Position numbers and translations under genes: made by a program. A stretch of 33,095 nt of DNA from a virus (lineage: Duplodnaviria > Caudoviricetes), in IMG/VR virus record IMGVR_UViG_3300030372_004852, positions 1 to 33,095 of that record, one strand, 5' to 3'. The notes below the pieces were generated by a model that made no database searches, was not told the DNA's origin, and worked only from the letters and a program-made list of their open reading frames with translations. Below are positions 1 to 15,822 of the stretch, in pieces. Position 1 is the first letter of the stretch; each line of letters opens with the position of its first letter.

Positions 1-132
1 ATCCCACTTTTTCTTCAGTATCTTTGCTAGCTTAAGGGATGCGGTCCCAGTGCTTCGCATAATTCTATTGGGCGGTGTGCCTTCTGTGTACCACCAATTT
101 GGACTGTCTCCTCTGCGATAAAGCCTACTCAA
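1..132 (-). CDS. N-terminal fragment of a probable tyrosine integrase (continues beyond left edge)
   Basis: Not in the ORF track. TTG at 132-130 overlaps the repressor TGA stop. It reads open to the edge as MSRLYRRGDSPNWWYTEGTPPNRIMRSTGTASLKLAKILKKKWD, resembling integrase arm-binding N-termini (LYxRxxSxxWW...RSTGT...A), and lies next to the repressor and xis-like genes. The catalytic domain is not visible. Confidence 0.6.
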   Translation of the reverse strand, partial: MSRLYRRGDSPNWWYTEGTPPNRIMRSTGTASLKLAKILKKKWD

Positions 133-959
133 TTTGAAATTCCATTAATAATAACAGATTTGCTTAATACTTTTACAGGTTTTGATTTCCAATCCAGTAA
201 AATATAACATATAGTGTTGCAATAGTTTTCATTAACTAGATATTTAACAGGAATAACCATATAATGTAACCCAGCAACCCATTTTAACGAATCTAAAACA
301 GTAGGAAGGTTGCGAGTCATTTTTTTTAATTCACTTAAGGACTCTTTGTCAATAATTTTATCAACAGGGTGTTCGTTTGTTATGTGCCATTTATTTTCTG
401 AAAAATATTGACTTCTTAAATCCTCAGGAGAAATATTTAAATTCTCACCTAATATACTTAAACCCTTTATGTTGGATATTTTTCTTTCTATTGGTTTTAA
501 GCTAAATATATTTTTCATTTCTACTGTTGTTTCCATATCAGCTTGAACATCGTCAAATTTCATTTTTTGTAACGGTTGGCTTTCTATAACATTTTTTAAC
601 ATAACTAATTCGCGTTGCTGTTGTTCTATCTTGTCTTTTTGTAAGTCAATTATATATTGACTATCTACATTCATTTTTTCCTCCGAGTCTTTAATTGTAA
701 TTTTTTTGTTTTTTATTTTTATATTATCTTTTTTATAAACTTTTAAAAAGCCATCTTCACTTGATTTTTCCTCAATATAATCAACAACCGATGTATTATA
801 TGTTTTACAATATTTTTGAATAATAGACATTGGCATTCGTTTTCTAGCTTTCCAATTTGAAACCGCTGCGGGCGATACATCAAATATTTTTGCCAGCTCG
901 GCATCTGAATAAATTTCTTGTTCTAGCTTTATTTTATTTAGTATAAATTGTATATTCAT
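129..959 (-). CDS. CI-like phage repressor (N-terminal HTH, coiled coil, unknown C-terminal domain)
   Basis: SDAELAKIFDVSPAAVSNWKARKRMP is a Cro/CI-type HTH; divergent from the xis-like gene. No S24 peptidase motif recognised. Confidence 0.75.
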   Translation of the reverse strand: MNIQFILNKIKLEQEIYSDAELAKIFDVSPAAVSNWKARKRMPMSIIQKYCKTYNTSVVDYIEEKSSEDGFLKVYKKDNIKIKNKKITIKDSEEKMNVDSQYIIDLQKDKIEQQQRELVMLKNVIESQPLQKMKFDDVQADMETTVEMKNIFSLKPIERKISNIKGLSILGENLNISPEDLRSQYFSENKWHITNEHPVDKIIDKESLSELKKMTRNLPTVLDSLKWVAGLHYMVIPVKYLVNENYCNTICYILLDWKSKPVKVLSKSVIINGISN

Positions 960-1088: not shown

Positions 1089-1277
1089 ATGGCAGAGTTT
1101 CTAACAGTTTCACAGGTTGCCGATGAGCTAAAAGTGTCAACAGGTACGATTAGGCAGTACATACAAACAGGAAAACTAAAAGCTAGCAAACCAGGTGGGA
1201 AGAAATTTATCATCTTAAAAGCCGAGCTTTTGAGGTTTGTTAATAAAGCAACCTATAAACCATTAGCTACTCTTTAA
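1089..1277 (+). CDS. Excisionase-like / HTH_17 (MerR-type) DNA-binding protein
   Basis: FLTVSQVADELKVSTGTIRQYIQTGKLKASKPGGKKFII is a typical HTH_17 pattern. Confidence 0.85.
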   Translation: MAEFLTVSQVADELKVSTGTIRQYIQTGKLKASKPGGKKFIILKAELLRFVNKATYKPLATL

Positions 1278-1318
1278 TTATTAGTTCTGTAACGTTAGTG
1301 AAAGAACTAATAATTAAA
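1273..1318 (+). repeat. Conserved-loop hairpin H1
   Basis: 16-bp perfect stem TTTAATTATTAGTTCT/AGAACTAATAATTAAA with loop GTAACGTTAGTGAA; contains the xis stop and precedes the next RBS. Confidence 0.85.
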
Positions 1319-1326
1319 AGGGAGCA

Positions 1327-1527
1327 ATGAAAAAAGCAGAATCAGTAGCAAGAAAAGAATGTGCCAACTATAACGGTGGCAAATGTCTAGGAGTTATGTT
1401 TACAAGAATTAATGGCAAAATAAATGTCAAGGTTGACAGCAGTTTTGCAGGCAAGGATTGTTCAAAGTGCCTAGATAAATGTTTATATTTTAACAATATA
1501 GTAATAGGGAGCAAAATACATGCCTAA
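1327..1527 (+). CDS. Small Cys-rich hypothetical protein
   Basis: GGGAG RBS; five Cys; overlaps the next gene. Confidence 0.7.
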   Translation: MKKAESVARKECANYNGGKCLGVMFTRINGKINVKVDSSFAGKDCSKCLDKCLYFNNIVIGSKIHA

Positions 1528-1702
1528 AGATGATGTCGTTTTAAAAATGCGAATAGAGAGAACGAATAAAACTACCGAAGAAGATGTTAAGAGATTTTAC
1601 ATAACTGTAAATAGAATGGCAGAAAACTTAGGATTTAATGTAATTGCACCCAAAGAAAACAGCCAACACCTAGCGCTTAGAGGAGAAACAAAAGATGAGT
1701 GA
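1520..1702 (+). CDS. Hypothetical protein
   Basis: GGGAG RBS; overlaps neighbours in the operon. Confidence 0.65.
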   Translation: MPKDDVVLKMRIERTNKTTEEDVKRFYITVNRMAENLGFNVIAPKENSQHLALRGETKDE

Positions 1703-2183
1703 GGAATTTCAAGCATTAGATGAACTTCACGATGAAGTAAAAGAAACCGATATTACAGAAATTCATGCAGACCAAATGTTATACAAAATATCTCAATTAG
1801 AAAAAGAAATTGAGGAAATAAAAGAGAAACAAATGGAATCTGCTGAGTTTTACGATAGGAGAATAGCGTCGGTTTTAAAACAAATACAATATAGAGCAAA
1901 TATTCTTGAATCTTTTATGTTAAACGAGATTAAAGCTACGAATAAAAAAACATCAAAGATGCCAAACGGAACCCTTAGGATGACAACTAGGACGGTAAAA
2001 CGATTTGGGGAAAACGATGATTTAATCAAGTTTTCTTATGCTCATAATATACCAACTAGGGTTACAGAAAAACCCGACAAGAAGGCGATTTCTGATTATA
2101 TAAAAGAAACTGCACACATTCCAGATGGCTACGAAGAGGAAGTGGAGACATCGTTTTCTTACAAGACCAACAACCAACAATAA
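1695..2183 (+). CDS. Mu Gam-like host-nuclease inhibitor / Gp157-like coiled-coil protein
   Basis: Coiled-coil N-half followed by KKTSKMPNGTLRM...EKPDKKAI; AGGAG RBS; upstream of the annealing protein. Confidence 0.65.
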   Translation: MSEEFQALDELHDEVKETDITEIHADQMLYKISQLEKEIEEIKEKQMESAEFYDRRIASVLKQIQYRANILESFMLNEIKATNKKTSKMPNGTLRMTTRTVKRFGENDDLIKFSYAHNIPTRVTEKPDKKAISDYIKETAHIPDGYEEEVETSFSYKTNNQQ

Positions 2184-2192
2184 GGAGATAAT

Positions 2193-2888
2193 ATGCCAGT
2201 AAAAATACATGGAAAAGATTATCGCACTGTAGCAGAGCGCGTAGAGCTTTTTCATCAAAATCACAAAAACGCTGAAAAAAGCATTACCACAGAAATACTG
2301 CACAACGATGAAAGTACGGTAATGATGAAAACTACCGTTACCGTAGGAGATTCTACCTATACGGGGCATGCCGTTGAGGTTTACAACAGTTCAATGATTA
2401 ATAAAACGTCTGCATTGGAAAACTGTGAGACATCAGCAATAGGAAGAGCTTTAGCTAGCGCAGGGTTAGGTGGAACTGAATTTGCATCTGCTGATGAAGT
2501 TACAAATGCTATTGCCCAACAAAATAAACCCGCAGCGAATAATGGTGCTAGCAACGGAGTTCCTAAAGTTAAAAATCAAGATATATTATTTGAGGAAAGC
2601 AAGGAAGGAGAGCCTTTTGATTGGGATGATGGCAGAGAGCAAGCTATCCGTTTTGGAAAACATAAAGGTATGAAGTGGAAGGAAGTACCATTGGATTACT
2701 TGCAATGGTTAGCGGAAGGCTCGGATAATGAGCAATGGAAAATGATGGCAAATGCTGAGATTATTGCTAGGGTTACAGATGGGGTAGAGGGCAACGGAGA
2801 GACGAAGAAAGAAACGGAAAAAGTAGTTGAGAAGAAACAAGAGTCTATGGCGCTAGCGACAGAAGACGATGACGATTTACCATTCTAG
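2193..2888 (+). CDS. Rad52/Sak-like single-strand annealing protein with DUF3820-like domain and acidic SSB-like tail
   Basis: GKDYRTVAERV...ALENCETSAIGRALASAG core; IRFGKHKG...VPLDYLQWL module; C-terminus DDDDLPF. Confidence 0.7.
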   Translation: MPVKIHGKDYRTVAERVELFHQNHKNAEKSITTEILHNDESTVMMKTTVTVGDSTYTGHAVEVYNSSMINKTSALENCETSAIGRALASAGLGGTEFASADEVTNAIAQQNKPAANNGASNGVPKVKNQDILFEESKEGEPFDWDDGREQAIRFGKHKGMKWKEVPLDYLQWLAEGSDNEQWKMMANAEIIARVTDGVEGNGETKKETEKVVEKKQESMALATEDDDDLPF

Positions 2889-2890
2889 TT

Positions 2891-3142
2891 ATGACACAGA
2901 AAAATATAATACTCGATTACTTAAAGAAGAATAAAAGCATTACATCGTGGAAAGCTATACAAGATTTCCATATTACGAGAGTTGCTGATGTTATTCTTAG
3001 ACTTAGGCAAGAAGGACACAATATAGAGACCAAAAAAGTTACCCACAGAAATTCTAGAACGGGAAAAGTTACACAGTACGCTAAATACGTTTACCATGAA
3101 CCCATTGTTATTGGAGATAATTACTCTCTTGCGTTGGTATAG
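2891..3142 (+). CDS. Winged-helix DNA-binding protein
   Basis: TQKNIILDYLKKNKSITSWKAIQDFHITRVADVILRLRQEGHNIET...YAKY is a common phage wHTH pattern. Confidence 0.75.
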   Translation: MTQKNIILDYLKKNKSITSWKAIQDFHITRVADVILRLRQEGHNIETKKVTHRNSRTGKVTQYAKYVYHEPIVIGDNYSLALV

Positions 3143-3204
3143 ACTCGATAAAAACAAAGGGGGTATACCTTTTGCTCCTCGCCCCCTTTGTCGGGAGTTT
3201 ATGT

Positions 3205-3618
3205 ATGCCAAGTAGGAGCAAGCAAAAAGGAAACCGATTTGAAAGAGAGGTAACCAATATTGCCAAAGAATACGATATAGATTCACAAAGAGCATATGCA
3301 AGTAATGGTTTATCTCTTGGACACTCAGAAGAAGTTGATGTTTTATTAAGCACACCCAATAAAGATTGGCGAGTGCAATGCAAAGTAAGAAAAAACATAG
3401 CAAGCTGGATAAAACCCGATGCTAGCGTAGTGGACCTTCAGGTCGTTAAGGAAGATAGGGGTACGATATATGCTGTACTGCCTTATGAGAATTTTCTTGA
3501 ATTAATAGCAGATGATGAAGAATATAGAAATAGCGCTCAAGAAAAACATGACGATGAAAGAGATTATCACAAAGCAAGAAGAGAGGATATAGAAAGTGGT
3601 ATTAAAGAACAACTTTAA
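3205..3618 (+). CDS. Holliday junction resolvase-like PD-(D/E)xK nuclease
   Basis: SKQKGNRFEREV...VDVLL...VQCKVRK; start moved to ATG 3205 after GGGAG. Confidence 0.75.
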   Translation: MPSRSKQKGNRFEREVTNIAKEYDIDSQRAYASNGLSLGHSEEVDVLLSTPNKDWRVQCKVRKNIASWIKPDASVVDLQVVKEDRGTIYAVLPYENFLELIADDEEYRNSAQEKHDDERDYHKARREDIESGIKEQL

Positions 3619-3787
3619 AATCGGAGACACAGTAACCGCAACAACCATAGGCAAAGATGGGGAGTCAATATTCGTAAGTGGGGAAATTACTTCCTTAACA
3701 GATAAATACGCCTTTTTATTAAAAAAATTTCCTAAGAGACAGCATTTTTCCGTAAAAGTGGAAGATATTGTACTTAGGAACAAGTAA
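3596..3787 (+). CDS. Small hypothetical protein (possible SH3-like fold)
   Basis: FKIGDTV...GEIT pattern; GAGGA upstream; operon position. Confidence 0.55.
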   Translation: MVLKNNFKIGDTVTATTIGKDGESIFVSGEITSLTDKYAFLLKKFPKRQHFSVKVEDIVLRNK

Positions 3788-3797
3788 AGGAGAATAC

Positions 3798-4778
3798 ATG
3801 CCAAGAAAAAATGGAAAAGCACCTGCATTTATGTTATATGCTAGCGACTTTGTGTCTGATATGAAAGTACAGCTTATGAACATGGAAGAAAGAGGTATCT
3901 ACATTACCTTACTACTTTATCAATGGATTGAAGATTCTTTGCCTACAGAAATAAGTGAGCTTAAAGAATTATGTAAAAATCATGAAAATTTTGAACAAGC
4001 TTGGAAAAAGGTTAGCAAATGCTTTGTTGAGAAAAATGGAAAGCTATATAATCCAAGACTTGAAGTTGAAAGAAGCGAACAAAGAAAAAGAGCTGAGAAG
4101 AATAGTCAAAATGGAAAAATAGGGGCAATGAAAAGATGGAATAAGAAAGAGGATAGCGAGGCTATAGCCACGCCATTGCCTTCTAATGAAAAAGAAATAG
4201 AAATAGAAATTAAAAAACCTAAAAAAGAAAATAAAACAAACGAATATTTAAAAGAATTTGAAAATGAATTTTGGACACTTTACCCAAGAAGAGATAATAA
4301 AAAACGAGCTAAAGATAAATATGTGCAACTTAGAAAAAATGGTACAGATAAGGAAATTATTTTAAGTGGGTTAAAGAACTACATTAAACAATGGAGAAGT
4401 GCAGGCACTGAACCCGAATTTATTCCTATGGCTAGCACTTGGTTGCATCAAGAAAGATTTGAGGATGAGTTAATTAGCAATATGAAAACCGCTGAAAAAT
4501 TGGTTATTGCTAAAAAATCATTTGAATACATGTGCATTGAATGTGGCGTAGAAAAAACATTTGAGGAAGAATCGTACGAACTATGTGATTGTGGAGAAGG
4601 GATATTAGAAGATAAGAAACATGTTCTTCAGGAGCTAGCTAGAAGAAAGAATACCCCTGGTAAACCAGGGGGCGCAGCGAAGCAAGCTAGCTCACCAGAG
4701 AAAACAAAGAACGATTCTGGAGAAATAAAAGATTTTAGTAAGATGTTAAGCAACCTTACAAACTCATTGGGGGCGTAA
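3798..4778 (+). CDS. Phage replication initiator (DUF1376/YdaU-type N-terminus, C-terminal Zn ribbon)
   Basis: APAFMLYASDF...ERGIYITLLLYQW...LYNPRLE; GKIGAMKRW; FENEFWTLYPRR...FIPMASTWLHQERFEDE; CIEC...CDC. AGGAG RBS before ATG 3798. Confidence 0.8.
   Translation: MPRKNGKAPAFMLYASDFVSDMKVQLMNMEERGIYITLLLYQWIEDSLPTEISELKELCKNHENFEQAWKKVSKCFVEKNGKLYNPRLEVERSEQRKRAEKNSQNGKIGAMKRWNKKEDSEAIATPLPSNEKEIEIEIKKPKKENKTNEYLKEFENEFWTLYPRRDNKKRAKDKYVQLRKNGTDKEIILSGLKNYIKQWRSAGTEPEFIPMASTWLHQERFEDELISNMKTAEKLVIAKKSFEYMCIECGVEKTFEEESYELCDCGEGILEDKKHVLQELARRKNTPGKPGGAAKQASSPEKTKNDSGEIKDFSKMLSNLTNSLGA
4150..4210. promoter_or_regulatory. Iteron-like palindromes plus A-rich tract inside the initiator gene (candidate origin)
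   Basis: AGGATAGC/GCTATAGC/GCCATTGC at 11-bp period followed by GAAATAGAAATAGAA; lambdoid origins lie at the equivalent place in initiator genes. Confidence 0.5.
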
Positions 4779-4850
4779 TAATTATTGTAAAAAACGGTTG
4801 GCGCGGTTTTATCAACAATAAAACTCTTTTCATGGAAAAATAAACTAAAA

Positions 4851-5096
4851 ATGGTAATTGAGAAAAAAGAGAATGATAAATACGCCCCTAAAAGATATAA
4901 AAGAAGTAATACTTTTGATGCGAAAAAAGCAGACCAAGACATTAAGTATTGTAAAAAATGTAACAGATGTTGGGAAATGGTAAGAAGTAGTAACAAATAT
5001 AAGTTGATACATTATAAAGATTTTCCAACGTACAAACGAGCAAGGGAAACTTGTTTTTTTTGTTTAGAAAAAATAAAAGGCGCGCATGTTATATAG
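4851..5096 (+). CDS. Small Zn-finger hypothetical protein
   Basis: CKKC...CFFC. Confidence 0.6.
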   Translation: MVIEKKENDKYAPKRYKRSNTFDAKKADQDIKYCKKCNRCWEMVRSSNKYKLIHYKDFPTYKRARETCFFCLEKIKGAHVI

Positions 5097-5284
5097 GTTA
5101 CCCACAACTACACATAACCTTGTTGCTCCGCATGGCATCTCCCATGTGCGCCTTACCATTAGGGAGATGTTTGAAACAAATCTTCGCTTGAAATTCAATC
5201 AAATAAATGTATTTGGAATTTTATTCAAATTAAAAACGAGCGAATGGATAAGTAAAACATCTCTCTATGTAAAAATTAAAACAT

Positions 5285-5512
5285 ATGATAATTGTTAACA
5301 TATCAGAATGGATAGTTCAACTCTTTGTATTGGGCTTAGCGCTTATATTTTGGTGCATAGGGCTGTTTTTTCTAGCTTTGCTTATTGACGTTTACTCAAG
5401 AATATTAAAAGAAACCTTTGGAGGATTATTATGCCAACTAAAAAGAAAAATATACCACATAATTTTCGCGGTAAAGAAGATATTTTCTTTGCCAAAATTA
5501 AAAAAGGACTGA
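5285..5512 (+). CDS. Small membrane protein
   Basis: Long hydrophobic N-terminal segment; the 3' part overlaps the 5431 ORF so the boundary is uncertain. Confidence 0.5.
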   Translation: MIIVNISEWIVQLFVLGLALIFWCIGLFFLALLIDVYSRILKETFGGLLCQLKRKIYHIIFAVKKIFSLPKLKKD

Positions 5513-5583
5513 AGCGCTTTCTAGCACCGCCTTCAGCTCACCAGCAAAAGAAAAAAGGTATCCAGCGAGACCCCGAATGCTAG
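5431..5583 (+). CDS. Small basic hypothetical protein (50 aa, not in ORF track)
   Basis: GGAGGA RBS then MPTKKKNIPHNFRGKEDIFFAKIKKGLKRFLAPP...; overlaps the start of the 5577 ORF. Confidence 0.5.
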   Translation: MPTKKKNIPHNFRGKEDIFFAKIKKGLKRFLAPPSAHQQKKKGIQRDPEC

Positions 5584-5858
5584 TTACGAAAACTAATAAA
5601 ACTAAAAAAAAACCTATAAGTAGAAAAAAACTTACAAAGGAATTTGCAAGCTTATATGTTCATTCTCTACCTCATTGGAGAGTAGCGGAATTGGGCGAAA
5701 AATACTTAAGAGAAGAATTGAACAAGCTTTCAGAAAAATATTTTGTCGAAAAACTAAAAAATGAACGCTTTGGTGACATTTGCGCACCTCCTGTTGACAA
5801 ATGGGAATTGTTTGTTAGGTATATAGAGCAACAAAACGCAAAGAAAAAAAGGAGCTAG
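5577..5858 (+). CDS. Hypothetical protein
   Basis: ORF tightly packed in the operon. Confidence 0.65.
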   Translation: MLVTKTNKTKKKPISRKKLTKEFASLYVHSLPHWRVAELGEKYLREELNKLSEKYFVEKLKNERFGDICAPPVDKWELFVRYIEQQNAKKKRS

Positions 5859-5859
5859 C

Positions 5860-6174
5860 ATGGAATTATTATATTACACCTGGGAAATATTTACAATGGA
5901 TGAGAAAAATGCGTGGTGGTTAATGATGGTTGTGTTCTCTGTAACTTGTATTACGTTTATTTATACAAATGTTAAAATCAGGTTAAGTCAGGAAACACAA
6001 AGAGCTAGGTTAAAAGAGATTGAATATAAAGTATCGTACATATTTGAGAAAATAAAACGCAAAGATATTAGTAATAGTCAGCTACATATGTTAATTAGTG
6101 ATAAATTTAAAGAGCTGAACGGAGCTAGCACTGCCAGCCCCGCAGCGGAGCTAGAAAAGGAGAAGCAATGCTAA
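5860..6174 (+). CDS. Hypothetical membrane-anchored protein
   Basis: AGGAG RBS; one hydrophobic segment followed by a coiled coil. Confidence 0.65.
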   Translation: MELLYYTWEIFTMDEKNAWWLMMVVFSVTCITFIYTNVKIRLSQETQRARLKEIEYKVSYIFEKIKRKDISNSQLHMLISDKFKELNGASTASPAAELEKEKQC

Positions 6175-6527
6175 AAAAAGACTATCAAGACCAACGCGAC
6201 CACTTAGGGGCGCACCTAAAAAATAGCGTAAGTAAAGTGTATCAAATAACAGACGGCATATTGCAGATTTGCCAGTATGCTAGAAAAGGAAAACTGGGGA
6301 AGGGTAGGTCGTTCAAAGAAATAGAAAAGCTAGCACTAGAGTTACGGCACTGGAACGATGTACCTGCTAATATCAGCTATAAGTTTTCGCCTTTGGGTGT
6401 GATGGATAAAGAAAAAGAGTGGGAAGAAGAAAAGGAAAAGTCTAATAAGTTTATGTTATCGAAAGATGATGCAGATAATAAAATATATCCTACGCTTAAA
6501 GATATTAAAAATGTGTTAGCTACTTAG
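6168..6527 (+). CDS. Hypothetical protein
   Basis: AAGGAG RBS; last gene of the + operon. Confidence 0.7.
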   Translation: MLKKDYQDQRDHLGAHLKNSVSKVYQITDGILQICQYARKGKLGKGRSFKEIEKLALELRHWNDVPANISYKFSPLGVMDKEKEWEEEKEKSNKFMLSKDDADNKIYPTLKDIKNVLAT

Positions 6528-6609
6528 GTGTGTGATTAATTAAATTAACGCAACAACGAGTCTTTTCTATCGGGTATTCTCCGTCTTAAAGCGCAAGTTG
6601 TTGGTTGTT

Positions 6610-6640
6610 GAAAGGGGTGCGTCAACACCCCTTTCTTTTT
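6610..6640 (+). terminator. Intrinsic terminator between convergent operons
   Basis: GAAAGGGGTG-cgtcaa-CACCCCTTTC followed by TTTTT. Confidence 0.75.
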
Positions 6641-6989
6641 ATCTAGAAGTATCTAATATTCTAACTAATTGTCGATATTGTGATGCTGAGTATTCTTTCC
6701 ACTCTTCAGATGATTCTAAAAGTTCACTTATTAAATCTCGAACTTCTTCTAGCACGCTAAACATACTGTCTCTTGATTTTAGGCTATGTATTTTTTTTGC
6801 AAAAATATTCTTACCTTTTTCATCCCTTAGATAAAGACCTAATGCGCCACACTTAACTTTGTCATTTATCCTATTCATTACCTCAAGTGTTTTATCGCGT
6901 TTTATAATTTCTGACCTTCTAGCATCGCACATCGTACAAATACAATCTTTATTGCCTTTTTCATGTAGGTATAATTTATTTTTTTCCAT
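6639..6989 (-). CDS. Hypothetical protein (CxCxxC motif)
   Basis: GGGAG RBS; DCICTMC. Confidence 0.7.
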   Translation of the reverse strand: MEKNKLYLHEKGNKDCICTMCDARRSEIIKRDKTLEVMNRINDKVKCGALGLYLRDEKGKNIFAKKIHSLKSRDSMFSVLEEVRDLISELLESSEEWKEYSASQYRQLVRILDTSR

Positions 6990-7068
6990 AACACTCCCTT
7001 ATTCTAATTAAATAACATTGTAGAATTTTGCTTTATTTTTAATTCATACATAGAGAATCAACGTTGAT

Positions 7069-7353
7069 TTATATATCGTTTAATCTAGGTAGCTTATTTC
7101 TCATAGACATAGACTCAATAATCATACGGTCTTTTTCTTTTATATTGTATCTTCTAAGGTTGTGTTCTATTATTTCATCCTTAGTCATCTTCATATCAGT
7201 TTGTCTATAACCCCTTTCAACTTTTCCTACCTCATTTGTAACTATTGCAGTTACATCCTTTATTGGGTAGTGTATATCGCTATCTTGAGTTGGTAGCCAA
7301 CTTAGAACATACCCATCACATAAATCTACTCTGACTAGACTGAGTTTCTTCAT
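7069..7353 (-). CDS. Hypothetical protein
   Basis: AGGAG RBS; ATGA overlap with the upstream gene. Confidence 0.7.
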   Translation of the reverse strand: MKKLSLVRVDLCDGYVLSWLPTQDSDIHYPIKDVTAIVTNEVGKVERGYRQTDMKMTKDEIIEHNLRRYNIKEKDRMIIESMSMRNKLPRLNDI

Positions 7354-7616
7354 TTTTTACTCCTTTTTATTTTATTATTTTTAAAATATTCTCTTAGCGC
7401 TCTCCAAACCACTACTTCGGTTGCCATTATTTTTCTAGCAAGCAAAGTTTCTGTTACTTCATCTTTCCTAAACCATTGACTTCTCCACATGTAGTACGAC
7501 TCTTCAAATAATTGCCCTATTATATCTTTAATATATTTTTCACTTATTGCAATGTCTTTGTCGTGAACTTTTACTTTCATATTATAATTCCTCATCTTCA
7601 TATACTCTTTCTGCAT
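7350..7616 (-). CDS. Hypothetical protein (true start probably ATG at 7580)
   Basis: Operon packing; GAGGA upstream of ATG 7580. Confidence 0.6.
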   Translation of the reverse strand: MQKEYMKMRNYNMKVKVHDKDIAISEKYIKDIIGQLFEESYYMWRSQWFRKDEVTETLLARKIMATEVVVWRALREYFKNNKIKRSKK

Positions 7617-7821
7617 CCTTTAGTCTCATAATAGTTATTTCTTGCCAATCTTCTTCTTTTTTTTTCATCATTGAACAATCAGAAATACGAATTTCTATTG
7701 GTTCATGTATTTTCCATCCAAGTTCTTTAATTAGTTTGTGTGGTATGTTTGCAACATCAGAAGATGTTCCTTTTAATAAACCTTTTACACATCCTTTATC
7801 TATGGCTTTTTTTCCTTTCAT
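7582..7821 (-). CDS. AbrB/MazE-like DNA-binding protein
   Basis: ANIPHKLIKELGWKIHEPIEIRI resembles the swapped-hairpin IPxxxxxxLGWxxGxxI motif. Confidence 0.5.
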   Translation of the reverse strand: MKGKKAIDKGCVKGLLKGTSSDVANIPHKLIKELGWKIHEPIEIRISDCSMMKKKEEDWQEITIMRLKDAERVYEDEEL

Positions 7822-8096
7822 TTTTTATTCCTTTTCATGTATTTATTTTTAAAATCTTCTATATCTTGCAAGCATGCTTTATAATTCAATACTCCATCTC
7901 TCCAATATGAGCAATTATCACAACCCTCTTTTCTTATATCGCACCAACATACAGATTCTTTTTCTTCACATAGGGTGTTAATTCTATCGCTACATGCTAT
8001 TGAGTAGTGTTGCAAGATAATTTCGATAGACTCATCTTTGGTTTTATTTTCAAATAGGCTCATCATGTTAATATTCCGACATAAGAAATTCGTCAA
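7818..8096 (-). CDS. Hypothetical Cys-rich protein (start probably about 8066)
   Basis: CWC...CDNC; ATGA overlap downstream. Confidence 0.6.
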   Translation of the reverse strand: MTNFLCRNINMMSLFENKTKDESIEIILQHYSIACSDRINTLCEEKESVCWCDIRKEGCDNCSYWRDGVLNYKACLQDIEDFKNKYMKRNKK

Positions 8097-8334
8097 TGTA
8101 GATTTCTAGGGTGTCCCAAGATACTCCCAAGCTAGCATCGTGATTACTTTTAACATCGCCAAGTATGTACATGCACTCTTCGTCGGTAAGTTTTACAGAA
8201 TCTCCATATTTTTTCTTAAACCAATCACGCTCTTGCATGTTTTCTAGCGTATGCTTTATATCGTCAATGTGCCATATAAGTGCGATTGAATTTTCGCTAG
8301 TATAACCATCTTGATATGTTGTTACTTTGTTCAT
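8068..8334 (-). CDS. Hypothetical phage protein
   Basis: AGGAG RBS; IWHIDDI...LTDEEC...HDASLGVSWDTL looks like a recurrent phage small-protein family. Confidence 0.7.
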   Translation of the reverse strand: MNKVTTYQDGYTSENSIALIWHIDDIKHTLENMQERDWFKKKYGDSVKLTDEECMYILGDVKSNHDASLGVSWDTLEIYIDEFLMSEY

Positions 8335-8456
8335 TTTTGCTCCTTTTTATTTTCAATTGGCGACCAAATAAACTTTACCATGTCTTTTATAATATTGTCA
8401 TACCAAATATCATGTTCTGATTTTTTCTTTTTTTTGGGGATTTTATTTTTTTTCAT
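8331..8456 (-). CDS. Small basic hypothetical protein (41 aa, not in ORF track)
   Basis: MKKNKIPKKKKKSEHDIWYDNIIKDMVKFIWSPIENKKEQK; fills the gap exactly with an ATGA overlap. Confidence 0.55.
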   Translation of the reverse strand: MKKNKIPKKKKKSEHDIWYDNIIKDMVKFIWSPIENKKEQK

Positions 8457-8457
8457 G

Positions 8458-8751
8458 CTAGCTCTCATTTGTTAGTTTATTAATTATTTTCACAGCGTTT
8501 AGGCAAGCGTTTCTGTATCCTATGTCGTATGCTATTACTTCGCCGTCGTTACTTGTGTCCCAATTTTCTATATCAAAATTCCCATTTTCATCGCCGTAGT
8601 CTTCAGCTAGCTTTTCCTCTATGTCTGTAGTTAGTTCCCCTAGTTTATTTATAAACGAATTCTTAAAAGCTTGTTTTAACAAGTTCTTTTTTGACACCAT
8701 TTCGTCTATTATCTCTTCTAGGTATTCGGGATTTTCTCTAAAAATGCTCAT
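8458..8751 (-). CDS. Hypothetical acidic protein
   Basis: Start moved to ATG 8751 (AAGGAG RBS). Confidence 0.65.
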   Translation of the reverse strand: MSIFRENPEYLEEIIDEMVSKKNLLKQAFKNSFINKLGELTTDIEEKLAEDYGDENGNFDIENWDTSNDGEVIAYDIGYRNACLNAVKIINKLTNES

Positions 8752-8761
8752 TTTTACTCCT

Positions 8762-8989
8762 TTAGATAAGTTCCATTGCTTTTTTGTATAACTCTCCAAC
8801 TATACCGCATTGTATTAACCTTTGGCTGTGTAAATAATGCGCTCTATCCACACTTATTTCGCCATCTTGATAAAAGTTTTCGGGTGCATAGTCGGGCATT
8901 ATTATTGTTTCTATTTGCTTTTTTGTTAATCTTCTGTGGTCGATTCCAACTTCTGCAAGAAGTTTTTTATAATAGTCGCTTAATTTCAT
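8762..8989 (-). CDS. Hypothetical phage protein
   Basis: AAGGA RBS; APENFYQDGEIS motif. Confidence 0.7.
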   Translation of the reverse strand: MKLSDYYKKLLAEVGIDHRRLTKKQIETIIMPDYAPENFYQDGEISVDRAHYLHSQRLIQCGIVGELYKKAMELI

Positions 8990-8990
8990 G

Positions 8991-9167
8991 CTATTCCTTT
9001 ATGTAAAATGTTTTAGGGTCTAGGTTGTTTTTTATTATGTCCACGATAGCTACATCATTTAGATTGAAACAATGTTTGCAAGAAAGAATACCACCTTGCA
9101 ATCCTACGCTATCAATAAAACGATAATCTTTTATTTTTATTTTGTGTTTAAAACATATATGGCACAT
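8991..9167 (-). CDS. Small Zn-finger protein (58 aa, not in ORF track)
   Basis: AAGGAG RBS; MCHICFKHK...LSCKHCFNL...; fills the intergenic gap. Confidence 0.65.
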   Translation of the reverse strand: MCHICFKHKIKIKDYRFIDSVGLQGGILSCKHCFNLNDVAIVDIIKNNLDPKTFYIKE

Positions 9168-9184
9168 ATTATCTCCTTTAATGG

Positions 9185-9931
9185 TTAATAAAGCCTAACT
9201 CGCTTTGCATCAGAGCATTTATAGTTGTAAATATCTTCAATCGCTCTGTTCGCATCTACAATATTCCTTATAAGCCTCAAATTTCTTATTAATTCGACTG
9301 GTTTTTGACTTAGCTTAGACATAAATCGCTTGTAGTTAAAATTGGGCGCTTTAAAAAGCTTTAACATTGCATATACAAACGCTCTATGTTTCCATCCATC
9401 GTAATATTCCCTACAAGCTCTAAGTCTCATTGCATTTTCTCTAGCTAGCTCAAAGTCTTTTACTTCAAGTGCGCCGTCATAAAACATTTGACTCATAAAC
9501 TTTTGGTCGCTTGTGTGGTCTGCAAGAATTGTAAGGGATATAGAGTGTCCAAATCCGTATTCTCTTCTGAAGATTAAATATTTTTTATAAGCACCATATC
9601 CTTCGGATTTAAAGGATTCTGCATAGTCAATTTCGCTCCAAGTTTTATTGTCTTTATTTAATCGCTTAACGTCTTCAATAGTCAATCCATTTATAACGAT
9701 ATAATAAACGGGTAGCTTGAGATTTTTAATTGCCTCAAATCTATTTTGTCCATCTGCTATCTCGTTTTTTTCATTTACAACAATAGGTACTGCATATTGT
9801 TTTTCGCTCATGCTCTTCATAAGCCTATGCACATGAGCCTCATATACGGTTCTGTTGTGTTCCATCTTTTGAAAAATAGAGTAATCATTTGTCATATAAA
9901 CCGTATTTGCAACTTGTTTTGTTTTTTGCAT
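9185..9931 (-). CDS. ParB/Srx N-terminal-like domain protein
   Basis: HNRTV...HVHRLMKSM...PIVVNEKNEIADGQNRFEAIKNLKLPV matches the ParB-N DGxxR motif. Confidence 0.75.
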   Translation of the reverse strand: MQKTKQVANTVYMTNDYSIFQKMEHNRTVYEAHVHRLMKSMSEKQYAVPIVVNEKNEIADGQNRFEAIKNLKLPVYYIVINGLTIEDVKRLNKDNKTWSEIDYAESFKSEGYGAYKKYLIFRREYGFGHSISLTILADHTSDQKFMSQMFYDGALEVKDFELARENAMRLRACREYYDGWKHRAFVYAMLKLFKAPNFNYKRFMSKLSQKPVELIRNLRLIRNIVDANRAIEDIYNYKCSDAKRVRLY

Positions 9932-9988
9932 ACTATATTTCCTTTATGTTTAGGGGTTTGGGGGCGGAAACCATGAAACCGCCCCCAT

Positions 9989-10011
9989 AAAAACCAGGTA
10001 TTTCTACCTGG
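9989..10011 (-). terminator. Intrinsic terminator after PC4-like gene, followed by a second GC hairpin (9959-9987)
   Basis: Minus strand CCAGGTA-GAAA-TACCTGG-TTTTT, then TGGGGGCGG...CCGCCCCCA. Confidence 0.65.
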
Positions 10012-10025
10012 GGTAGCGTGCTAGC

Positions 10026-10244
10026 TTATGCTTCGCCTTTGTGGTCTTCAAGTTCAAGTAATCCCTGTACTATGTCACCTGTGATTCCGAGGTCGAATGC
10101 TAAGCCTTTTTTCGTAGGAATAAACTCTTCTTTATCTTTTGGTTTCGTCCATACTCGTATCTGTCCAAAGGTTTTATCGTTTACAGTATCTTTTGTGATT
10201 AAGATTTTAGTTGTTTCTGAGATGTTTACTTCGTGAAGTGTCAT
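10026..10244 (-). CDS. PC4/YdbC-like ssDNA-binding protein
   Basis: KILITKDTVNDKTFGQIRVW...EFIPTKKGLAF matches the PC4 (p15) family pattern IRxW...PTKKGI. Confidence 0.75.
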   Translation of the reverse strand: MTLHEVNISETTKILITKDTVNDKTFGQIRVWTKPKDKEEFIPTKKGLAFDLGITGDIVQGLLELEDHKGEA

Positions 10245-10273
10245 TTTGACTCCTTGTTTGGTTGTTTTTGGTT

Positions 10274-10738
10274 CTAGGCTTTGCCTATTGTTTGGTTACT
10301 AAGCATTAATTCTTTCATCGTGTCTTCGTCTATGTCTTTGGGTAGGTCTATTGGCTTGCCTACCGCTACCTCTATATGTTGTGTGCCGTCGCCATCTGTT
10401 TTTGTATTTACTCGCATTTCCATGTCTTCGGGGATGGCTTTCATCGCCCTTGCTAGTCTTGTCGCATCAAATTTTGCAGTTCCTCTCTTCTGATTGTCTA
10501 TTTTTGTATGGATAGGGGAAATAAGTTCATCTACTTCAGCGGTTATTGTGCTAGCTATCTTTATTCTGTTCTCGATAGGTAAAACGTCTAGGGGTATGCT
10601 TGCTATTGCCCTTGCAAAACAATTTAAAAGTATATTGCTTGGTGTGGCTAATGTGTCATGGAAGATTTCTTCAATCTCGTTATTGCCCTCTGTGAGCAGT
10701 TTAATTCGTTGGATTAGTTTTTTAATATGGTCTTTCAT
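10274..10738 (-). CDS. Hypothetical protein
   Basis: GAGGT RBS downstream of hairpin H2. Confidence 0.7.
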   Translation of the reverse strand: MKDHIKKLIQRIKLLTEGNNEIEEIFHDTLATPSNILLNCFARAIASIPLDVLPIENRIKIASTITAEVDELISPIHTKIDNQKRGTAKFDATRLARAMKAIPEDMEMRVNTKTDGDGTQHIEVAVGKPIDLPKDIDEDTMKELMLSNQTIGKA

Positions 10739-10765
10739 TCGCTACCTCGTTGGTTGTTTTATTTA

Positions 10766-10806
10766 ATTAATTATTACTTTCACTAAAAGCTCAAGTAATA
10801 ATTAAT
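10766..10806 (-). repeat. Conserved-loop hairpin H2
   Basis: Minus strand ATTAATTATTACTT-GAGCTTTTAGTGA-AAGTAATAATTAAT (14-bp perfect stem). Confidence 0.85.
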
Positions 10807-10822
10807 AAATGTTTTTGGTTTT

Positions 10823-11107
10823 TCACACTTCCCAATCGGTTATAATCGTTATAGCATCTCTAGTGCCATATTGCTCTAGCCTATGCTGTTCTACGTTCTC
10901 TTGAAATGTTTTCTTATTATTAAAATATTTTGTTATTTCATCGGCAAATTCATAGTCTTTATTAGGCTCACCGTTAATAGTCATTTTCTGCTTTTCGCTA
11001 CAATTTCCACATATAGCTGTGCCACCTACTAGCACACCGCCAAATGTATCTGCTCCTTCGTTGCAAAAGTCACACACTACAAAGTTTTCGGTTCTAATTA
11101 CGGTCAC
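10823..11107 (-). CDS. Zn-finger hypothetical protein
   Basis: AAGGAG RBS with GTG start; CDFC...CGNC. Confidence 0.7.
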   Translation of the reverse strand: MTVIRTENFVVCDFCNEGADTFGGVLVGGTAICGNCSEKQKMTINGEPNKDYEFADEITKYFNNKKTFQENVEQHRLEQYGTRDAITIITDWEV

Positions 11108-11125
11108 TTCTACTCCTTTTATTTA

Positions 11126-11166
11126 ATTAATTATTACTTTCACTAAAGTTTTAAGTAATAATTAAT
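11126..11166 (-). repeat. Conserved-loop hairpin H3
   Basis: Minus strand ATTAATTATTACTT-AAAACTTTAGTGA-AAGTAATAATTAAT; includes the upstream stop codon. Confidence 0.85.
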
Positions 11167-11407
11167 AAATACTTTCAAATTCTGATTTGGTTAAGCACTC
11201 TTCATGTACTCTAGTGTATTCGTCTACCCAAATATCGTCATCTAAGGGTATAGGTTTATCACATCTGTCACATTCGTAGCATTGACATACAGCGCACATA
11301 TACCCCTCGTATTTTTTTGTGCTAGCAGGGATTCTGTTTACATATAAACCACTTCCCCAACTTGTGTCCCTATAACAAAAGACACAGTGATTTTTAATAT
11401 CTATCAT
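11162..11407 (-). CDS. Cys-rich Zn-binding hypothetical protein
   Basis: CVFC...CAVCQCYECDRC...HEEC. Confidence 0.7.
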   Translation of the reverse strand: MIDIKNHCVFCYRDTSWGSGLYVNRIPASTKKYEGYMCAVCQCYECDRCDKPIPLDDDIWVDEYTRVHEECLTKSEFESIY

Positions 11408-11409
11408 AA

Positions 11410-12312
11410 TTACCCCCTAAACCAATGTGGTTTGTTTGCTAGTTTTTGAAGTGTTTGTGCTAGACCGTCGATAGCTTCGTCGGTTGATTTACAGAATCGT
11501 TGTTCTACCGTATGAAGTAGATTTAACTCTCGTTTGTATACATCTGTGGTTTCGCATTGATACCCCATAGATGAATCGCTATCGTATCTTTTATCGAGTA
11601 ACCCAAACATATAGTCACGAAACAATCCCGAATGCCCTGCGCTCATTAGCCTATGTATATCTAATGGCTCGTTAGACATTTTAATCGGTATGGATATTCC
11701 GAGATAGCGCCAATCTCTCTCGCCACTATAGTTGACAAAATTGTAAGCTAGCACCTCGACGGCGTACCCCATTTTAGTTAGGACGTCACTAATCAAAGCT
11801 AGCGTGGCTCCAAGTCTCGCAAAATCGCTCTCTTTATGTTTCCAAGAGATAGCCATGTTCATTCCAATACGAACATTCATGCGCTGTGATTTTCTTTCGG
11901 TAGTAGACCAATATTGGTCTTGTCCGCCCATAAGTCTAGCCATGCTTAAATCGTCGCCATCGTCTCTCACTACGCGCTTTCTTTTGCATGATAAACCCTT
12001 GCCTACAAATTTGGATATTCTCGAATCCATATCCATCTCAGAGCGCAGTTTTTGGTATAGTCGAATAATATAATCCGATGATTGACCAATGGTTAAGGCT
12101 CTTTTTAGGTTATGTCTACCGACAACGTATTTTCCATAAGTCCACTCTTCGCGCTCAGAGTCTTTTTCGCCGACTCTATCGAATAAGTATTTATTTTCAT
12201 GGACACACTTCAGCATAGTTCTCATATCTGGCATGTGCATTATTGCATGCTTACCTTCAAATTCATCGTCGATAATTTTCGGTTCAAGTATTTCTTTATA
12301 TAATTCGCTCAT
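11410..12312 (-). CDS. vWA-like (CobT-like) partner of AAA+ ATPase
   Basis: Stop/start overlap with the ATPase; DDGDDLSMARLMGG then VRIGMNMAISW...GATLALISDVLTKMGYAVEV, a vWA-like topology with a degenerate MIDAS. Confidence 0.55.
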   Translation of the reverse strand: MSELYKEILEPKIIDDEFEGKHAIMHMPDMRTMLKCVHENKYLFDRVGEKDSEREEWTYGKYVVGRHNLKRALTIGQSSDYIIRLYQKLRSEMDMDSRISKFVGKGLSCKRKRVVRDDGDDLSMARLMGGQDQYWSTTERKSQRMNVRIGMNMAISWKHKESDFARLGATLALISDVLTKMGYAVEVLAYNFVNYSGERDWRYLGISIPIKMSNEPLDIHRLMSAGHSGLFRDYMFGLLDKRYDSDSSMGYQCETTDVYKRELNLLHTVEQRFCKSTDEAIDGLAQTLQKLANKPHWFRG

Positions 12313-13514
12313 TATTTATATTCCCTTTTTAGTTCTCTGATATTGACCTTATCAAGTTCCTCTTTCGTCCATCCCGTAGTTATAATGTCGAGTAACTTGC
12401 TGTTATTTTTTCCTGCTAGCATCCATTTTTGACCGTCGAGAAAAAGCCTTGTGCTAATCGTACGTCTCACATGATTCTTGTCACATCTATCTCGAAGGCT
12501 CCAAAGACAATCTGCCATATTTGTATAATCTCCTGCGAGCGCTCTTTCGATGTTTTTATCATAGTCGACATAAACCTTGACAGCTTGCAATCTATCTAGC
12601 GTAGCTAGGTCTAGTTGACCTCTGCCTGCAAAATTGAAGTCGTTACCGTCACCCCATGTATTACTCGCTACAGCTACATGAAAATCGTCATGCTTTCTAG
12701 CAAATGGATTTTCTTTATCGTTTGGAGTCGCTAAAACACCTTGATTATCTAGCACACTATTAAATACTAGACCTGCATTTGCATCGAATCCGTCAAATTC
12801 GTCCAAACATAGAAAGCTACCATCTCGAAATGCTCTTGATACCGACCCATCAATAAATGTACCGTCAAATGTCATTCTACCCGTCATATGTGACTCAGTA
12901 ACTCCTGCGCTACCTTTTAGGTACTCGTAGTTACTCTGATTGGTCGAAAATCCCAATGCTCTAGCACACTGTTCAATCAAATGGGACTTACCAGTCCCAC
13001 TCGGACCACATAACCAAACTCTTTTAAAGAGTTTCAAGCATTCTAGCACAAATGGAAACTGCTTATGTTTAAGACCCGACACATTCTTTACTTCGACGTC
13101 TTCGATAAATACTTTTATAGGTCGCTGTAAAGAGTTGATTTTCTTATCTACCTTATCGGATAGCTTTTCGGTCTCGCTACCAAAGGCTTTAATTAAATCG
13201 CCCTCTACTTTAGATACTCTGTTGTATATCCCATCCCCTAGTTTTTCTGCTACCTTGTCGGCTAGCATATCCTCTAAGCTACCTGTACCAGCCGAAGGCT
13301 GCGGTGTGCTAGCTCCTGGTGTGGGCGTCGGTGTCGGTGTTGGTTTTGGTGTTTGTTTTGGCTGAGTACCGTCAACTAAGAAAGTTATCAGTTCATCTTT
13401 ATGAAATGATTGCACCCAAGATGATTTAATGCCGTCTTGCTTGCATTTTGCCATAGCTAGCTTTTTTACTCTTTTGTGTGCCATAGCATTTAGTTCGTTA
13501 TACGAATAATTCAT
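12312..13514 (-). CDS. MoxR/CbbQ/CobS-like AAA+ ATPase with N-terminal domain and Pro/Thr linker
   Basis: Walker A GPSGTGKS, Walker B LCLDEFD, AVASNTWG, GRGQLDLATLDRL, ISTR sensor 2. Confidence 0.85.
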   Translation of the reverse strand: MNYSYNELNAMAHKRVKKLAMAKCKQDGIKSSWVQSFHKDELITFLVDGTQPKQTPKPTPTPTPTPGASTPQPSAGTGSLEDMLADKVAEKLGDGIYNRVSKVEGDLIKAFGSETEKLSDKVDKKINSLQRPIKVFIEDVEVKNVSGLKHKQFPFVLECLKLFKRVWLCGPSGTGKSHLIEQCARALGFSTNQSNYEYLKGSAGVTESHMTGRMTFDGTFIDGSVSRAFRDGSFLCLDEFDGFDANAGLVFNSVLDNQGVLATPNDKENPFARKHDDFHVAVASNTWGDGNDFNFAGRGQLDLATLDRLQAVKVYVDYDKNIERALAGDYTNMADCLWSLRDRCDKNHVRRTISTRLFLDGQKWMLAGKNNSKLLDIITTGWTKEELDKVNIRELKREYK

Positions 13515-13561
13515 GGTTTTCCTTTTGCCGATTTCGGCGATTGTTGTTGGTTGTTTTATTT

Positions 13562-13607
13562 TATTATTTCTAGCTTTTTCACTAAAGTTTCAAAGCTAGA
13601 AATAATA
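13562..13607 (-). repeat. Conserved-loop hairpin H4
   Basis: Minus strand TATTATTTCTAGCTTT-GAAACTTTAGTGAA-AAAGCTAGAAATAATA (16-bp perfect stem). Confidence 0.85.
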
Positions 13608-13721
13608 TTAAAGGGTGACTCTCAGCATTTGCAGAGCAAGTCCTAAAATCACCCATAGCACGAGAATAAATCCGAATAAATCGGATTCTAGAAAGTTTAC
13701 TACGCGTTCTAATAGTTTCAT
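13608..13721 (-). CDS. Single-pass membrane peptide (37 aa, not in ORF track)
   Basis: MKLLERVVNFLESDLFGFILVLWVILGLALQMLRVTL; ATGA overlap with the upstream gene, and the stop abuts H4. Confidence 0.65.
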   Translation of the reverse strand: MKLLERVVNFLESDLFGFILVLWVILGLALQMLRVTL

Positions 13722-13996
13722 GCTTGTTCCTTTTTTGCTAAATATTCTTTATATCTCTTGATAGTCTCGGTTGCATAGTCCTTGCCATAATCGTGCTTTA
13801 GGTAAGATATATCTCCCGACATATACTGACTAGGCTCTTTGCCATATACAATGGCAAATGATTGGTGTTTACTGCCATCTTTCCAAGTCTCTTCAAATAT
13901 GCCTAAGTCATATTTGCGACCATTTTCACTAATAAATCCTCCTAGCGGAATACAATAACTCCACATACTATGATTTTTGCCATGATAAAATTCCAT
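13718..13996 (-). CDS. Hypothetical protein
   Basis: AAGGAG RBS immediately after hairpin H5. Confidence 0.75.
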   Translation of the reverse strand: MEFYHGKNHSMWSYCIPLGGFISENGRKYDLGIFEETWKDGSKHQSFAIVYGKEPSQYMSGDISYLKHDYGKDYATETIKRYKEYLAKKEQA

Positions 13997-14009
13997 TTTG
14001 TTCTCCTTT

Positions 14010-14056
14010 TAAGGTTTCTAGCTTTTTCACTTACGTTTCAAAGCTAGAAAACCTTA
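14010..14056 (-). repeat. Conserved-loop hairpin H5
   Basis: Minus strand TAAGGTTTTCTAGCTTT-GAAACGTAAGTGAA-AAAGCTAGAAACCTTA (16 bp, one bulge). Confidence 0.85.
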
Positions 14057-14070
14057 GTTATTGGTTGTTT

Positions 14071-15802: not shown

Positions 15803-15822
15803 TAAGAATATATTATATAAAT

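Follow-up and report, generated by a model that had tools for sequence, protein, structure and literature searches.

Sequence comparison indicates that the early operons of an uncultured temperate marine phage carry an uncatalogued hairpin element that is common to two unrelated marine phage groups, namely the clade of this phage and the HMO-2011-type phages, which are a very abundant ocean group. How early genes are timed and tuned in marine podophages without an RNA polymerase of their own is largely unexplained. The window analysed here is the whole 33,095-nt stretch of the Caudoviricetes record IMGVR_UViG_3300030372_004852. Judged by gene content, the phage is temperate, having a cI-like repressor that is followed in relatives by a tyrosine integrase. 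Its right early operon is headed by a cro/xis-like gene and encodes Gam, recombination, RusA-like and replication initiator functions. The features concerned are the following:

129..959, minus strand, cI-like repressor
1089..1277, plus strand, cro/xis-like HTH gene, upstream of H1
1273..1318, plus strand, hairpin H1, 16-bp stem and 14-nt loop
6610..6635, plus strand, GC-rich hairpin followed by a U-tract, at the convergence of the two early operons
10026..10244, minus strand, PC4-like gene (weak Pfam match, E 5e-4, under the cut-off)
10750..10758, minus strand, AACAACCAA leader word, after H2
10766..10806, minus strand, hairpin H2, 14-bp stem (extending beyond a bulge) and 13-nt loop
11126..11166, minus strand, hairpin H3, same stem as H2
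11410-12312, minus strand, DUF7192 partner of the AAA+ ATPase, between H4 and H3
12312-13514, minus strand, AAA+ ATPase, between H4 and H3 (present, like its partner, throughout the clade)
13562..13607, minus strand, hairpin H4, 16-bp stem and 14-nt loop, upstream of the AAA+ ATPase gene
14010..14056, minus strand, hairpin H5, 11 bp, a bulge and 5 bp, following the left early operon's first gene

The coordinates, loops and orientation that an earlier note had given for the five hairpins were all confirmed. The window contained four perfect stems of at least 12 bp, compared with none in each of eight shuffles, and the folding z-scores of the five hairpins were -3.7 to -7.6. A covariance model scan of the whole window returned H1-H5, the same five more weakly on the reverse strand and a single further match (E 3.5), with no copy in the late operon, as the note had claimed. 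The five hairpins are therefore genuine, and the window holds no other copy. The stems had been described as purely Watson-Crick over 14-16 bp, which did not hold for H5 (11 perfect base pairs, a one-base bulge and 5 bp); in H2, the loop contains tandem GA/GA and a G-U pair within the apical helix. The proposed placement between a stop codon and the next ribosome-binding site needed some adjustment: the hairpins start from 5 nt inside to 16 nt past the upstream stop codon (H1 overlaps that of the cro/xis-like gene and H3 that of the upstream ORF) and end 8-47 nt ahead of the next start codon, while folding predicts that the extended stem of H1 pairs with the next ribosome-binding site. The reported lack of U-tracts was correct, none of H1-H5 being among the 17 terminator-like sites in the window or combining a GC-rich stem with a U-tract. 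The hairpin at 6610..6635, unlike H1-H5, is an ordinary terminator.

We next examined the structure of the element across the clade, using an alignment (A3) of 82 rows, from which five of 87 had been dropped (three reverse-strand duplicates and two unrelated-looking) and in which four rows were swapped for the window's own copies. The element consists of a 17-bp AU-rich stem topped by a GA that is left unpaired or mispaired, above which a helix of 2 bp carries a loop of 3-4 nt. Stem pairing was kept in 96% of 1310 cells, and the stem covariation was 0.74, against 0.20 in shuffled and at most 0.16 in slid alignments. Two-sided changes occurred at 15 of the 16 stem pairs, bearing out the claim that pairing is kept while the stem sequence changes. 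The apical 2-bp helix was Watson-Crick in 60 of the 82 rows and paired in 78 when coding-strand G-U was counted; counting opposite-strand wobble left it at 60 (shuffles, mean 51 and maximum 65). The cap is thus strand-specific. Its conserved part is UGA only and not the full AGTGAA loop: TGA ends the loop in 121 of the 141 hairpins that were selected on their stems only, and the other 20 include both unrelated hairpins and variants at equivalent positions that have UAA or are paired through to the top. Accordingly, the loop consensus GAA-AC-NTWA-GT-GAA proposed earlier fails across relatives, whose loops of 9-14 nt include poly-U and other forms, and TWAGTGAA alone is weakly enriched (10 matches against 4.6 expected). 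Several identities for this apex were considered and rejected, i.e., a K-turn (no room for the 3-nt bulge), an IRE-like loop (AGUG is not conserved), a mini-ORF starting at an NUG codon of the loop (a trivial consequence of UG, and disrupted in the UAA variants) and an integron attC site (no conserved AAC/GTT ends, and the integrase adjoins cI).

Each of ten near-complete relatives carries 2-6 copies of the element, all in early regions, on the coding strand, past a stop codon and before a start; those examined also have a hairpin at the position equivalent to H4. The element also occurs between early genes in HMO-2011-type phages, which are unrelated to the clade and among which are the cultured SAR116 phage HMO-2011 and the Roseobacter phages CRP-1 and CRP-345, and a 23-nt stretch is identical between HMO-2011-type copies and copies in the window's relatives. 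This letter-for-letter sharing between an uncultured temperate clade and the HMO-2011-type phages points to a common signal read by the host. The point can be tested directly, since three cultured phages carry the element and CRP-2, a phage of the host strain of CRP-1, apparently lacks it, the model having returned no copy there. The expectation that the hairpins match no known family was also upheld: Rfam 15 gave no match in the window at the gathering score, and hits no better than chance in 9900-14200 and five HMO-type stretches. Together with the covarying stems and the strand-specific cap, this supports the proposal of a dedicated, oriented and structure-conserved early-operon element.

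Other searches yielded nothing further. A BLAST search with H4 against 50,697 phage records gave chance-level hits only; BLAST hits to HTVC103P/104P were discarded, the first 9 kb having no such hairpin. Model R1 had no match in 151 genomes of the likely host phylum, where 40 candidates were scored per genome without a positive control, and the integrase of a relative found none at E 1e-25 in 401 genomes of that phylum. A literature search on an HMO-2011 stem-loop found nothing. Among the hits of the loose class-B pattern, the L217-type ones represent a different long repeat and most others arose by chance.

A question raised from these findings is whether the element is read by a phage or a host factor. 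The earlier note had suggested a phage factor such as the PC4-like protein, and within the clade the hairpins do co-occur with the AAA+ ATPase, its DUF7192 partner and the PC4-like gene, while more distant relatives lacking that early module showed no hairpins. However, this co-occurrence is one inheritance event, and it breaks down among the HMO-type carriers: a PC4 homologue and an AAA homologue were each found in none of five HMO-type records, the AAA+ ATPase/DUF7192 pair was likewise not found in them, and profiles of the window's conserved early proteins gave no match below E 0.03 in the fetched early regions of hairpin-bearing HMO-type phages, a search in which a small or remote homologue could be missed. 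A phage-encoded reader is therefore unsupported, and recognition by the PC4-like protein or the AAA+ ATPase pair seems very improbable. From these comparisons, a host reader appears more likely than a phage-encoded one. A Rho_N-like domain at the N-terminus of the AAA protein was also considered and dropped, as Pfam gave no support for it in eight homologues.

Of the explanations compared, we tentatively favour, at somewhat less than an even chance, that the copies are RNase III-type processing sites of the early transcript, by analogy with the T7 early region. The polycistronic early precursor of T7 carries five RNase III signals (PMC3867540), and these resemble the present element in being several long coding-strand hairpins between early genes, with about two helical turns, AU-only positions and bulges near the cut site, which is putative here. 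The fold would form in RNA, and host RNase III would cut the long early transcript into shorter units, leaving the ribosome-binding site of the next gene on a fresh short leader. The substrate helix would comprise about 21 steps in the clade (17 bp, GA and 2 bp) and about 25 pairs in the HMO-type phages, and the cut would fall near +10 to +12 after UGA, i.e., at 1311-1313 in H1 and 13569-13567 in H4. Consistent with this, RNase III requires at least 11 bp of helix and usually acts on two turns (PMC1540722, which gives the rules for the T7 site R1.1), a length reached by the median 17 Watson-Crick pairs plus cap in the clade and 25 in the HMO-type copies. Positions +7 to +12 are GC-poor in clade and non-clade copies, except for C-G at +9 in 25 of 82 clade rows, and bulges and mismatches show a local peak at +10 (16 of 53 non-clade and 8 of 82 clade copies); both features fit the rule that certain proximal-box positions admit AU pairs only, and the known confinement of cleavage to one strand by bulges. 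An RNase III gene was found in 138 of the 151 genomes searched, all from the likely host phylum, which for the clade is deduced from distant relatives only. Carriers of the element include phages of Roseobacter and SAR116 hosts, and no shared phage protein was found.

The fit of the element to RNase III rules is nevertheless imperfect, as no register satisfies all proximal and distal box rules. With pb2 at +8, where U-A is invariant in the clade (82 of 82) and replaced by A-U in about half of the HMO-type copies, pb4 is G-C in only 2 of 82 rows, but pb1 and db2 are non-canonical; with pb2 at +7, pb4 is C-G in 25 of 82, a pair that inhibits both E. coli and Aquifex RNase III. A preference of RNase III for C-G at pb4 was considered and rejected, being contradicted by PMC3074117. 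The UGA-N6-UA pattern was missing from four host 16S processing stems. Moreover, RNase III does not need a conserved loop (PMC1540722), so the strong conservation of the cap, with its sequence kept across unrelated phages, is left unexplained by processing, and in this respect the element differs from the T7 signals.

The strong conservation of the cap, which is strand-specific and the most conserved part of the element, would be accounted for if the RNA were bound but left uncut by a conserved host factor, such as RNA polymerase (the case of HK022 put), a Nus factor or non-cleaving RNase III, which would antiterminate, pause or stabilise the early transcript with the GA-capped apex as its site. 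Lambda nut consists of boxA beside a short boxB hairpin and HK022 put of two stems, and nutR follows cro. As in these systems, an oriented hairpin stands early in the early operons of a temperate phage, the first copy of the right operon (H1) comes after a cro-like gene, and neither phage group showed an RNA polymerase of its own in the stretches checked. On the other hand, the element occurs in up to five copies per operon, has a single and much longer stem, and lies in a left operon with no strong terminator between copies. Host rRNA leaders share a TTTGAAAA word, but neither this word nor any other boxA is conserved next to the copies, which speaks against the suggested kinship with nut sites; no N-like antiterminator is annotated in the window, where small unannotated ORFs remain. 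Considering also the apparent lack of a copy in CRP-2, we regard such binding as unlikely. It is doubtful, too, that the element is a mobile cassette exchanged between unrelated ocean phages with hosts in different phyla, whose apex would be recognised sequence-specifically by a conserved host machine in an undescribed mode or would act on host RNA polymerase as a DNA hairpin switch extruded by supercoiling.

The base pairs of the main stems bear on whether the element works as RNA or DNA, and they show no RNA signature, G-U being virtually lacking. The 53 non-clade stems contain 1145 Watson-Crick pairs, 59 mismatches and 134 bulges, with no G-U against 6.7 expected by composition, and the clade stems, whose rows were pre-selected for Watson-Crick pairs, contain 7 G-U and 9 A-C, compared with 15 G-U and 8 A-C in the four host 16S stems. 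This near-lack of G-U, another difference from the T7 signals, would suit a DNA-level cassette, namely an inverted repeat, rich in AT, that forms a cruciform by extrusion and/or contains a sigma70 promoter of the host, is spread by recombination and bounds swappable gene cassettes as a PeSL-like composite; this is the strongest rival reading, although less likely than processing. G-T pairs are absent from the repeat while strand-symmetric bulges are common; template-switch repair of palindromes, however, can erase wobble pairs regardless of function. The common apical loops (TTTA 20, GTAA 11, GTTA 5 and GAA 4) are of types stable in DNA hairpins. In 35 of the 53 non-clade copies, TTGAWA is followed by a TA-starting hexamer at exactly 17 nt (commonest form TATAAC, 17), more than at any other spacer from 11 to 23, but the TA-rich arms also yield TA in 26-27 of 53 at spacers 15 and 19. 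T at -7 occurs in only 1 of the 53, in agreement with what PMC8407463 reports for Alphaproteobacteria. In the clade, no such geometry exists: TA peaks at spacer 15 (41 of 82, against 19 at 17), the best promoter scores equal those of shuffles on both strands, and the host rRNA promoters are canonical, unlike the clade copies. In addition, the invariant part is the 3' UGA rather than the 5' TTGA, which several copies lack.

Two known DNA-level systems were compared in this context. T4-like PeSLs (PMC4122927) are likewise repeated between genes, ahead of a ribosome-binding site and within early regions that vary, and close relatives differ in the genes that separate the copies. Among the window's relatives, the genes between copies also differ, and the inter-copy distances vary widely (173-1558 nt and 354-2509 nt). 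In a PeSL, however, a short stem-loop precedes a near-consensus sigma70 promoter (PMC4122927), whereas here the stem has 17-25 bp, any promoter would lie inside it, and the -35/-10 geometry is absent from the clade and partial in the HMO-type copies. N4 hairpin promoters share a variable stem with kept pairing, a sheared G:A loop and strand-asymmetric structure (PMC4496689), but have a short GC-rich stem and a 3-nt loop on the template strand and are read by a virion polymerase. The present stem is long and AT-rich, its structured cap is on the coding (non-template) strand, and there was no sign of a virion RNA polymerase, so membership in the N4 type, raised by the earlier note, was not sustained. 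In two complete relatives, the largest virion protein lacks a DxDGD-type motif and matches no PHROG, and in one of them its Atlas features resemble those of ejection/lysozyme-bearing proteins (score 0.90), although a remote polymerase is possible.

If the copies are RNase III substrates, as we tentatively favour, T7-style processing would extend to abundant ocean phages, whose copies would offer naturally occurring variants on which to base substrate rules; a role as DNA hairpin promoters or polymerase-binding RNAs would amount to a new mechanism. Being repeats, processing sites of this kind would in addition provide crossover points at which the intervening genes could be swapped. Finally, the AACAACCAA word occurs seven times in the window against 0.6 expected, its positions including, besides that after H2, 13547-13555 (after H4), 14061-14069 (before H5), 10258-10266 and 2169-2177.

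The five intergenic hairpins H1-H5, which the earlier note had read from the window, were confirmed with corrections and lie above chance: four perfect stems of at least 12 bp were present in the window versus none in eight shuffles, and the folding z-scores of H1-H5 ranged from -3.7 to -7.6. They had no match in Rfam, and a search with a covariance model found them to be the sole copies of the element within the window. The window itself covers 33 kb of a marine temperate podophage, arranged as follows.

1089-6527, + strand: rightward early operon with a cro/xis-like gene, Gam, a RusA-like resolvase and a replication initiator; a cI-like repressor gene lies at 129-959 on the - strand
14736-6639, - strand: leftward early operon, including an AAA+ ATPase pair and a PC4-like gene
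Beyond the early operons: late genes (terminase, P22-like portal, capsid)

In relatives of the window, a tyrosine integrase follows cI. No cultured relative was found among 50,697 phage records, where terminase matches were all below 60% (best listed, about 28%). The capsid protein had a single GTDB match, on a contig from a Ca. Marinimicrobia genome (57%), and terminase relatives occurred in 3 of 401 genomes of this phylum, one within a 2.14-Mb contig; these matches indirectly point to Marinimicrobia as the likely host. The integrated relative in that contig (G187:C1, about 205000-238000; L137, L138) shares the head and tail-joint module, with 61% terminase identity, but its early region differs and lacks these hairpins; none was found in the stretches read of distant Marinimicrobia-genome relatives. 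Four genomes from the likely host phylum (L147-L150) have in their rRNA leaders the common word TTTGAAAA, after which comes a conserved 16S processing-stem box. The N-terminal 50 residues of the AAA+ ATPase (window 12312-13514) are conserved, basic and probably helical and have no Pfam match; the protein also has a Pro-Thr linker.

The element is a real, uncatalogued feature of marine phage early regions that crosses phage groups. Loci of the window's relatives (the clade) were gathered by ATPase, recombination protein and terminase searches, with terminase identity up to 64%. Stem criteria alone picked 141 hairpins in the window and the first 34 loci; in 121 of these the loop ends in TGA. The alignment A3 holds 82 distinct copies whose selection required TGA and strong Watson-Crick pairing; both features are therefore built in. 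Of its cells 96% are paired, and 15 of 16 pairs show two-sided change, counts that relatedness inflates, as it does the covariation (0.74 versus 0.20 in shuffled data). Numbered from the A of UGA as 0, stem pair +8 is U-A in all 82 rows and +7 is A-U in 75, while +3, +5, +6 and +9 alternate between G-C and A-U types. The stem is topped by GA/GA, GAA/GAA or a bulged GA; next come a 2-bp helix of several pair types and an apical loop, most commonly UUUA or GUAA. The pairing indicates that this cap folds on the coding strand, because admitting coding-strand G-U raises the rows with an apical helix from 60 (Watson-Crick) to 78 of 82, while opposite-strand wobble leaves them at 60. Each of ten relatives, nine of them at least 90% complete, has 2-6 copies, in early regions in every case, and close relatives differ in inter-copy spacing and in the genes between copies.

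Variant hairpins were also seen. At the H5 position of seven relatives' loci (L011, L018, L020, L021, L030, L031 and L033), fully paired forms that lack UGA and have a loop of 7-8 nt retain CTAG boxes at unchanged spacing. Distant relatives have, upstream of their AAA gene, hairpins in which the apical helix is longer, the loop measures 3-4 nt and UGA is replaced by UAA or GGA.

L019:6233-6281: UAA/GGA variant hairpin
L090:4963-4977: UAA/GGA variant hairpin
L095:6544-6560: UAA/GGA variant hairpin
L099:4777-4793: UAA/GGA variant hairpin

A pattern scan turned up further copies on contigs that carry no clade gene; the first early gene of these contigs has its match in gp01 of the Roseobacter phages CRP-1 and CRP-345, both of HMO-2011 type (for CRP-1, PMC6918029). 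Both phages carry one copy directly upstream of gp01 and one after gp02, and HMO-2011 carries three. No copy was found in CRP-2 or CRP-207 by the model (whole record) or by a stem scan (ends); the model missed 3 of 7 real copies, so some may have escaped it in these two phages as well. HMO-2011 and three clade loci have a 23-nt stretch in common without a mismatch. Exact matches to the 21-nt core were found in 119 IMG/VR loci, of which 79 have HMO-type neighbours, 15 belong to the clade and 25 are unassigned, and in at least 126 metagenome loci (about 440 estimated); among the 126 listed, 91 are HMO-type, 2 are clade and 4 have no neighbour that is found in any of these sets. Stems of the HMO-type copies have bulges and a greater length, with a median of 25 pairs. 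In three HMO-2011-type early regions (L173, L159, L330), another small repeated hairpin, GTCC...GGAC, sits immediately ahead of early-gene ribosome-binding sites, often directly following the large one. A literature search covering few subscription journals found nothing on HMO-2011 and stem-loops, and two RCA-phage papers do not mention RNase III, hairpin, stem-loop or promoter in their main text; an earlier mention of the element, including in the original HMO-2011 description, is possible. The element is of interest above all because it can already be tested, with cultured carriers and an apparent non-carrier that share a host.

The earlier note had suggested, as a possibility, a phage-encoded reader such as the PC4-like protein, which the carriers speak against: no PC4 or AAA homologue was found in five HMO-type carrier records (two being fragments), and clade early-protein profiles matched only two non-carriers. 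These absences suggest that a host-encoded reader, or no protein reader at all, is more likely than a phage protein, which now seems highly improbable.

The reading we tentatively place first, at somewhat under an even chance, is that the element works like the RNase III punctuation of T7. It would be an RNase III-type site in the early transcript, cut near +10 provided that the distal side is the cap end, and it has the position, orientation, number and helix length of the T7 early signals (PMC3867540, PMC1540722). Clade and HMO-type stems share a GC-poor stretch from +7 to +12 with irregularities peaking at +10, and genomes of the likely host phylum generally encode RNase III. However, the enzyme requires no conserved loop, no register satisfies all box rules, and the motif is absent from host 16S stems. 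The main stems also lack G-U (in the non-clade copies, 0 in 1145 pairs plus 59 mismatches, 6.7 expected); host 16S stems have 15.

This lack of wobble pairs favours a DNA hairpin or promoter cassette, an unlikely but serious alternative that follows closely. The apical loops, which look stable as DNA, count for it as well, and 35 of 53 non-clade copies show a TTGAWA-17-TA arrangement. These lack the -7 T, which is often missing from alphaproteobacterial promoters too (PMC8407463). Clade copies, however, have no such promoter-like geometry, and no virion polymerase is evident. The conserved cap would be best accounted for by an RNA that a host factor binds for antitermination or stabilisation; this reading is less probable still, with no boxA conserved beside the copies, no annotated N-like gene and no strong intervening terminator in the left operon.

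Other words and repeats recur in the window. CTAG is about twice its base-composition expectation in the early operons and non-coding gap (window 1089-15984; 28 versus 16, 56 versus 25 and 11 versus 5) and near expectation in the late region (60 versus 55). AACAACCAA occurs seven times where 0.6 would be expected, chiefly close to ribosome-binding sites in intergenic leaders, and is possibly an unstructured translation enhancer. An 11-nt GCTATAGC-type family flanks, in inverted orientation, the non-coding gap that precedes the packaging genes, and occurs once inside the replication initiator gene; its members are candidate iterons or packaging signals.

Window 2169, 6601, 10258, 10750, 13547, 14061, 30197: AACAACCAA sites
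Window 4153-4179: GCTATAGC-type repeats
Window 14816-14853: GCTATAGC-type repeats
Window 15707-15755: GCTATAGC-type repeats

Arrays similar to the GCTATAGC-type repeats occur in relatives.
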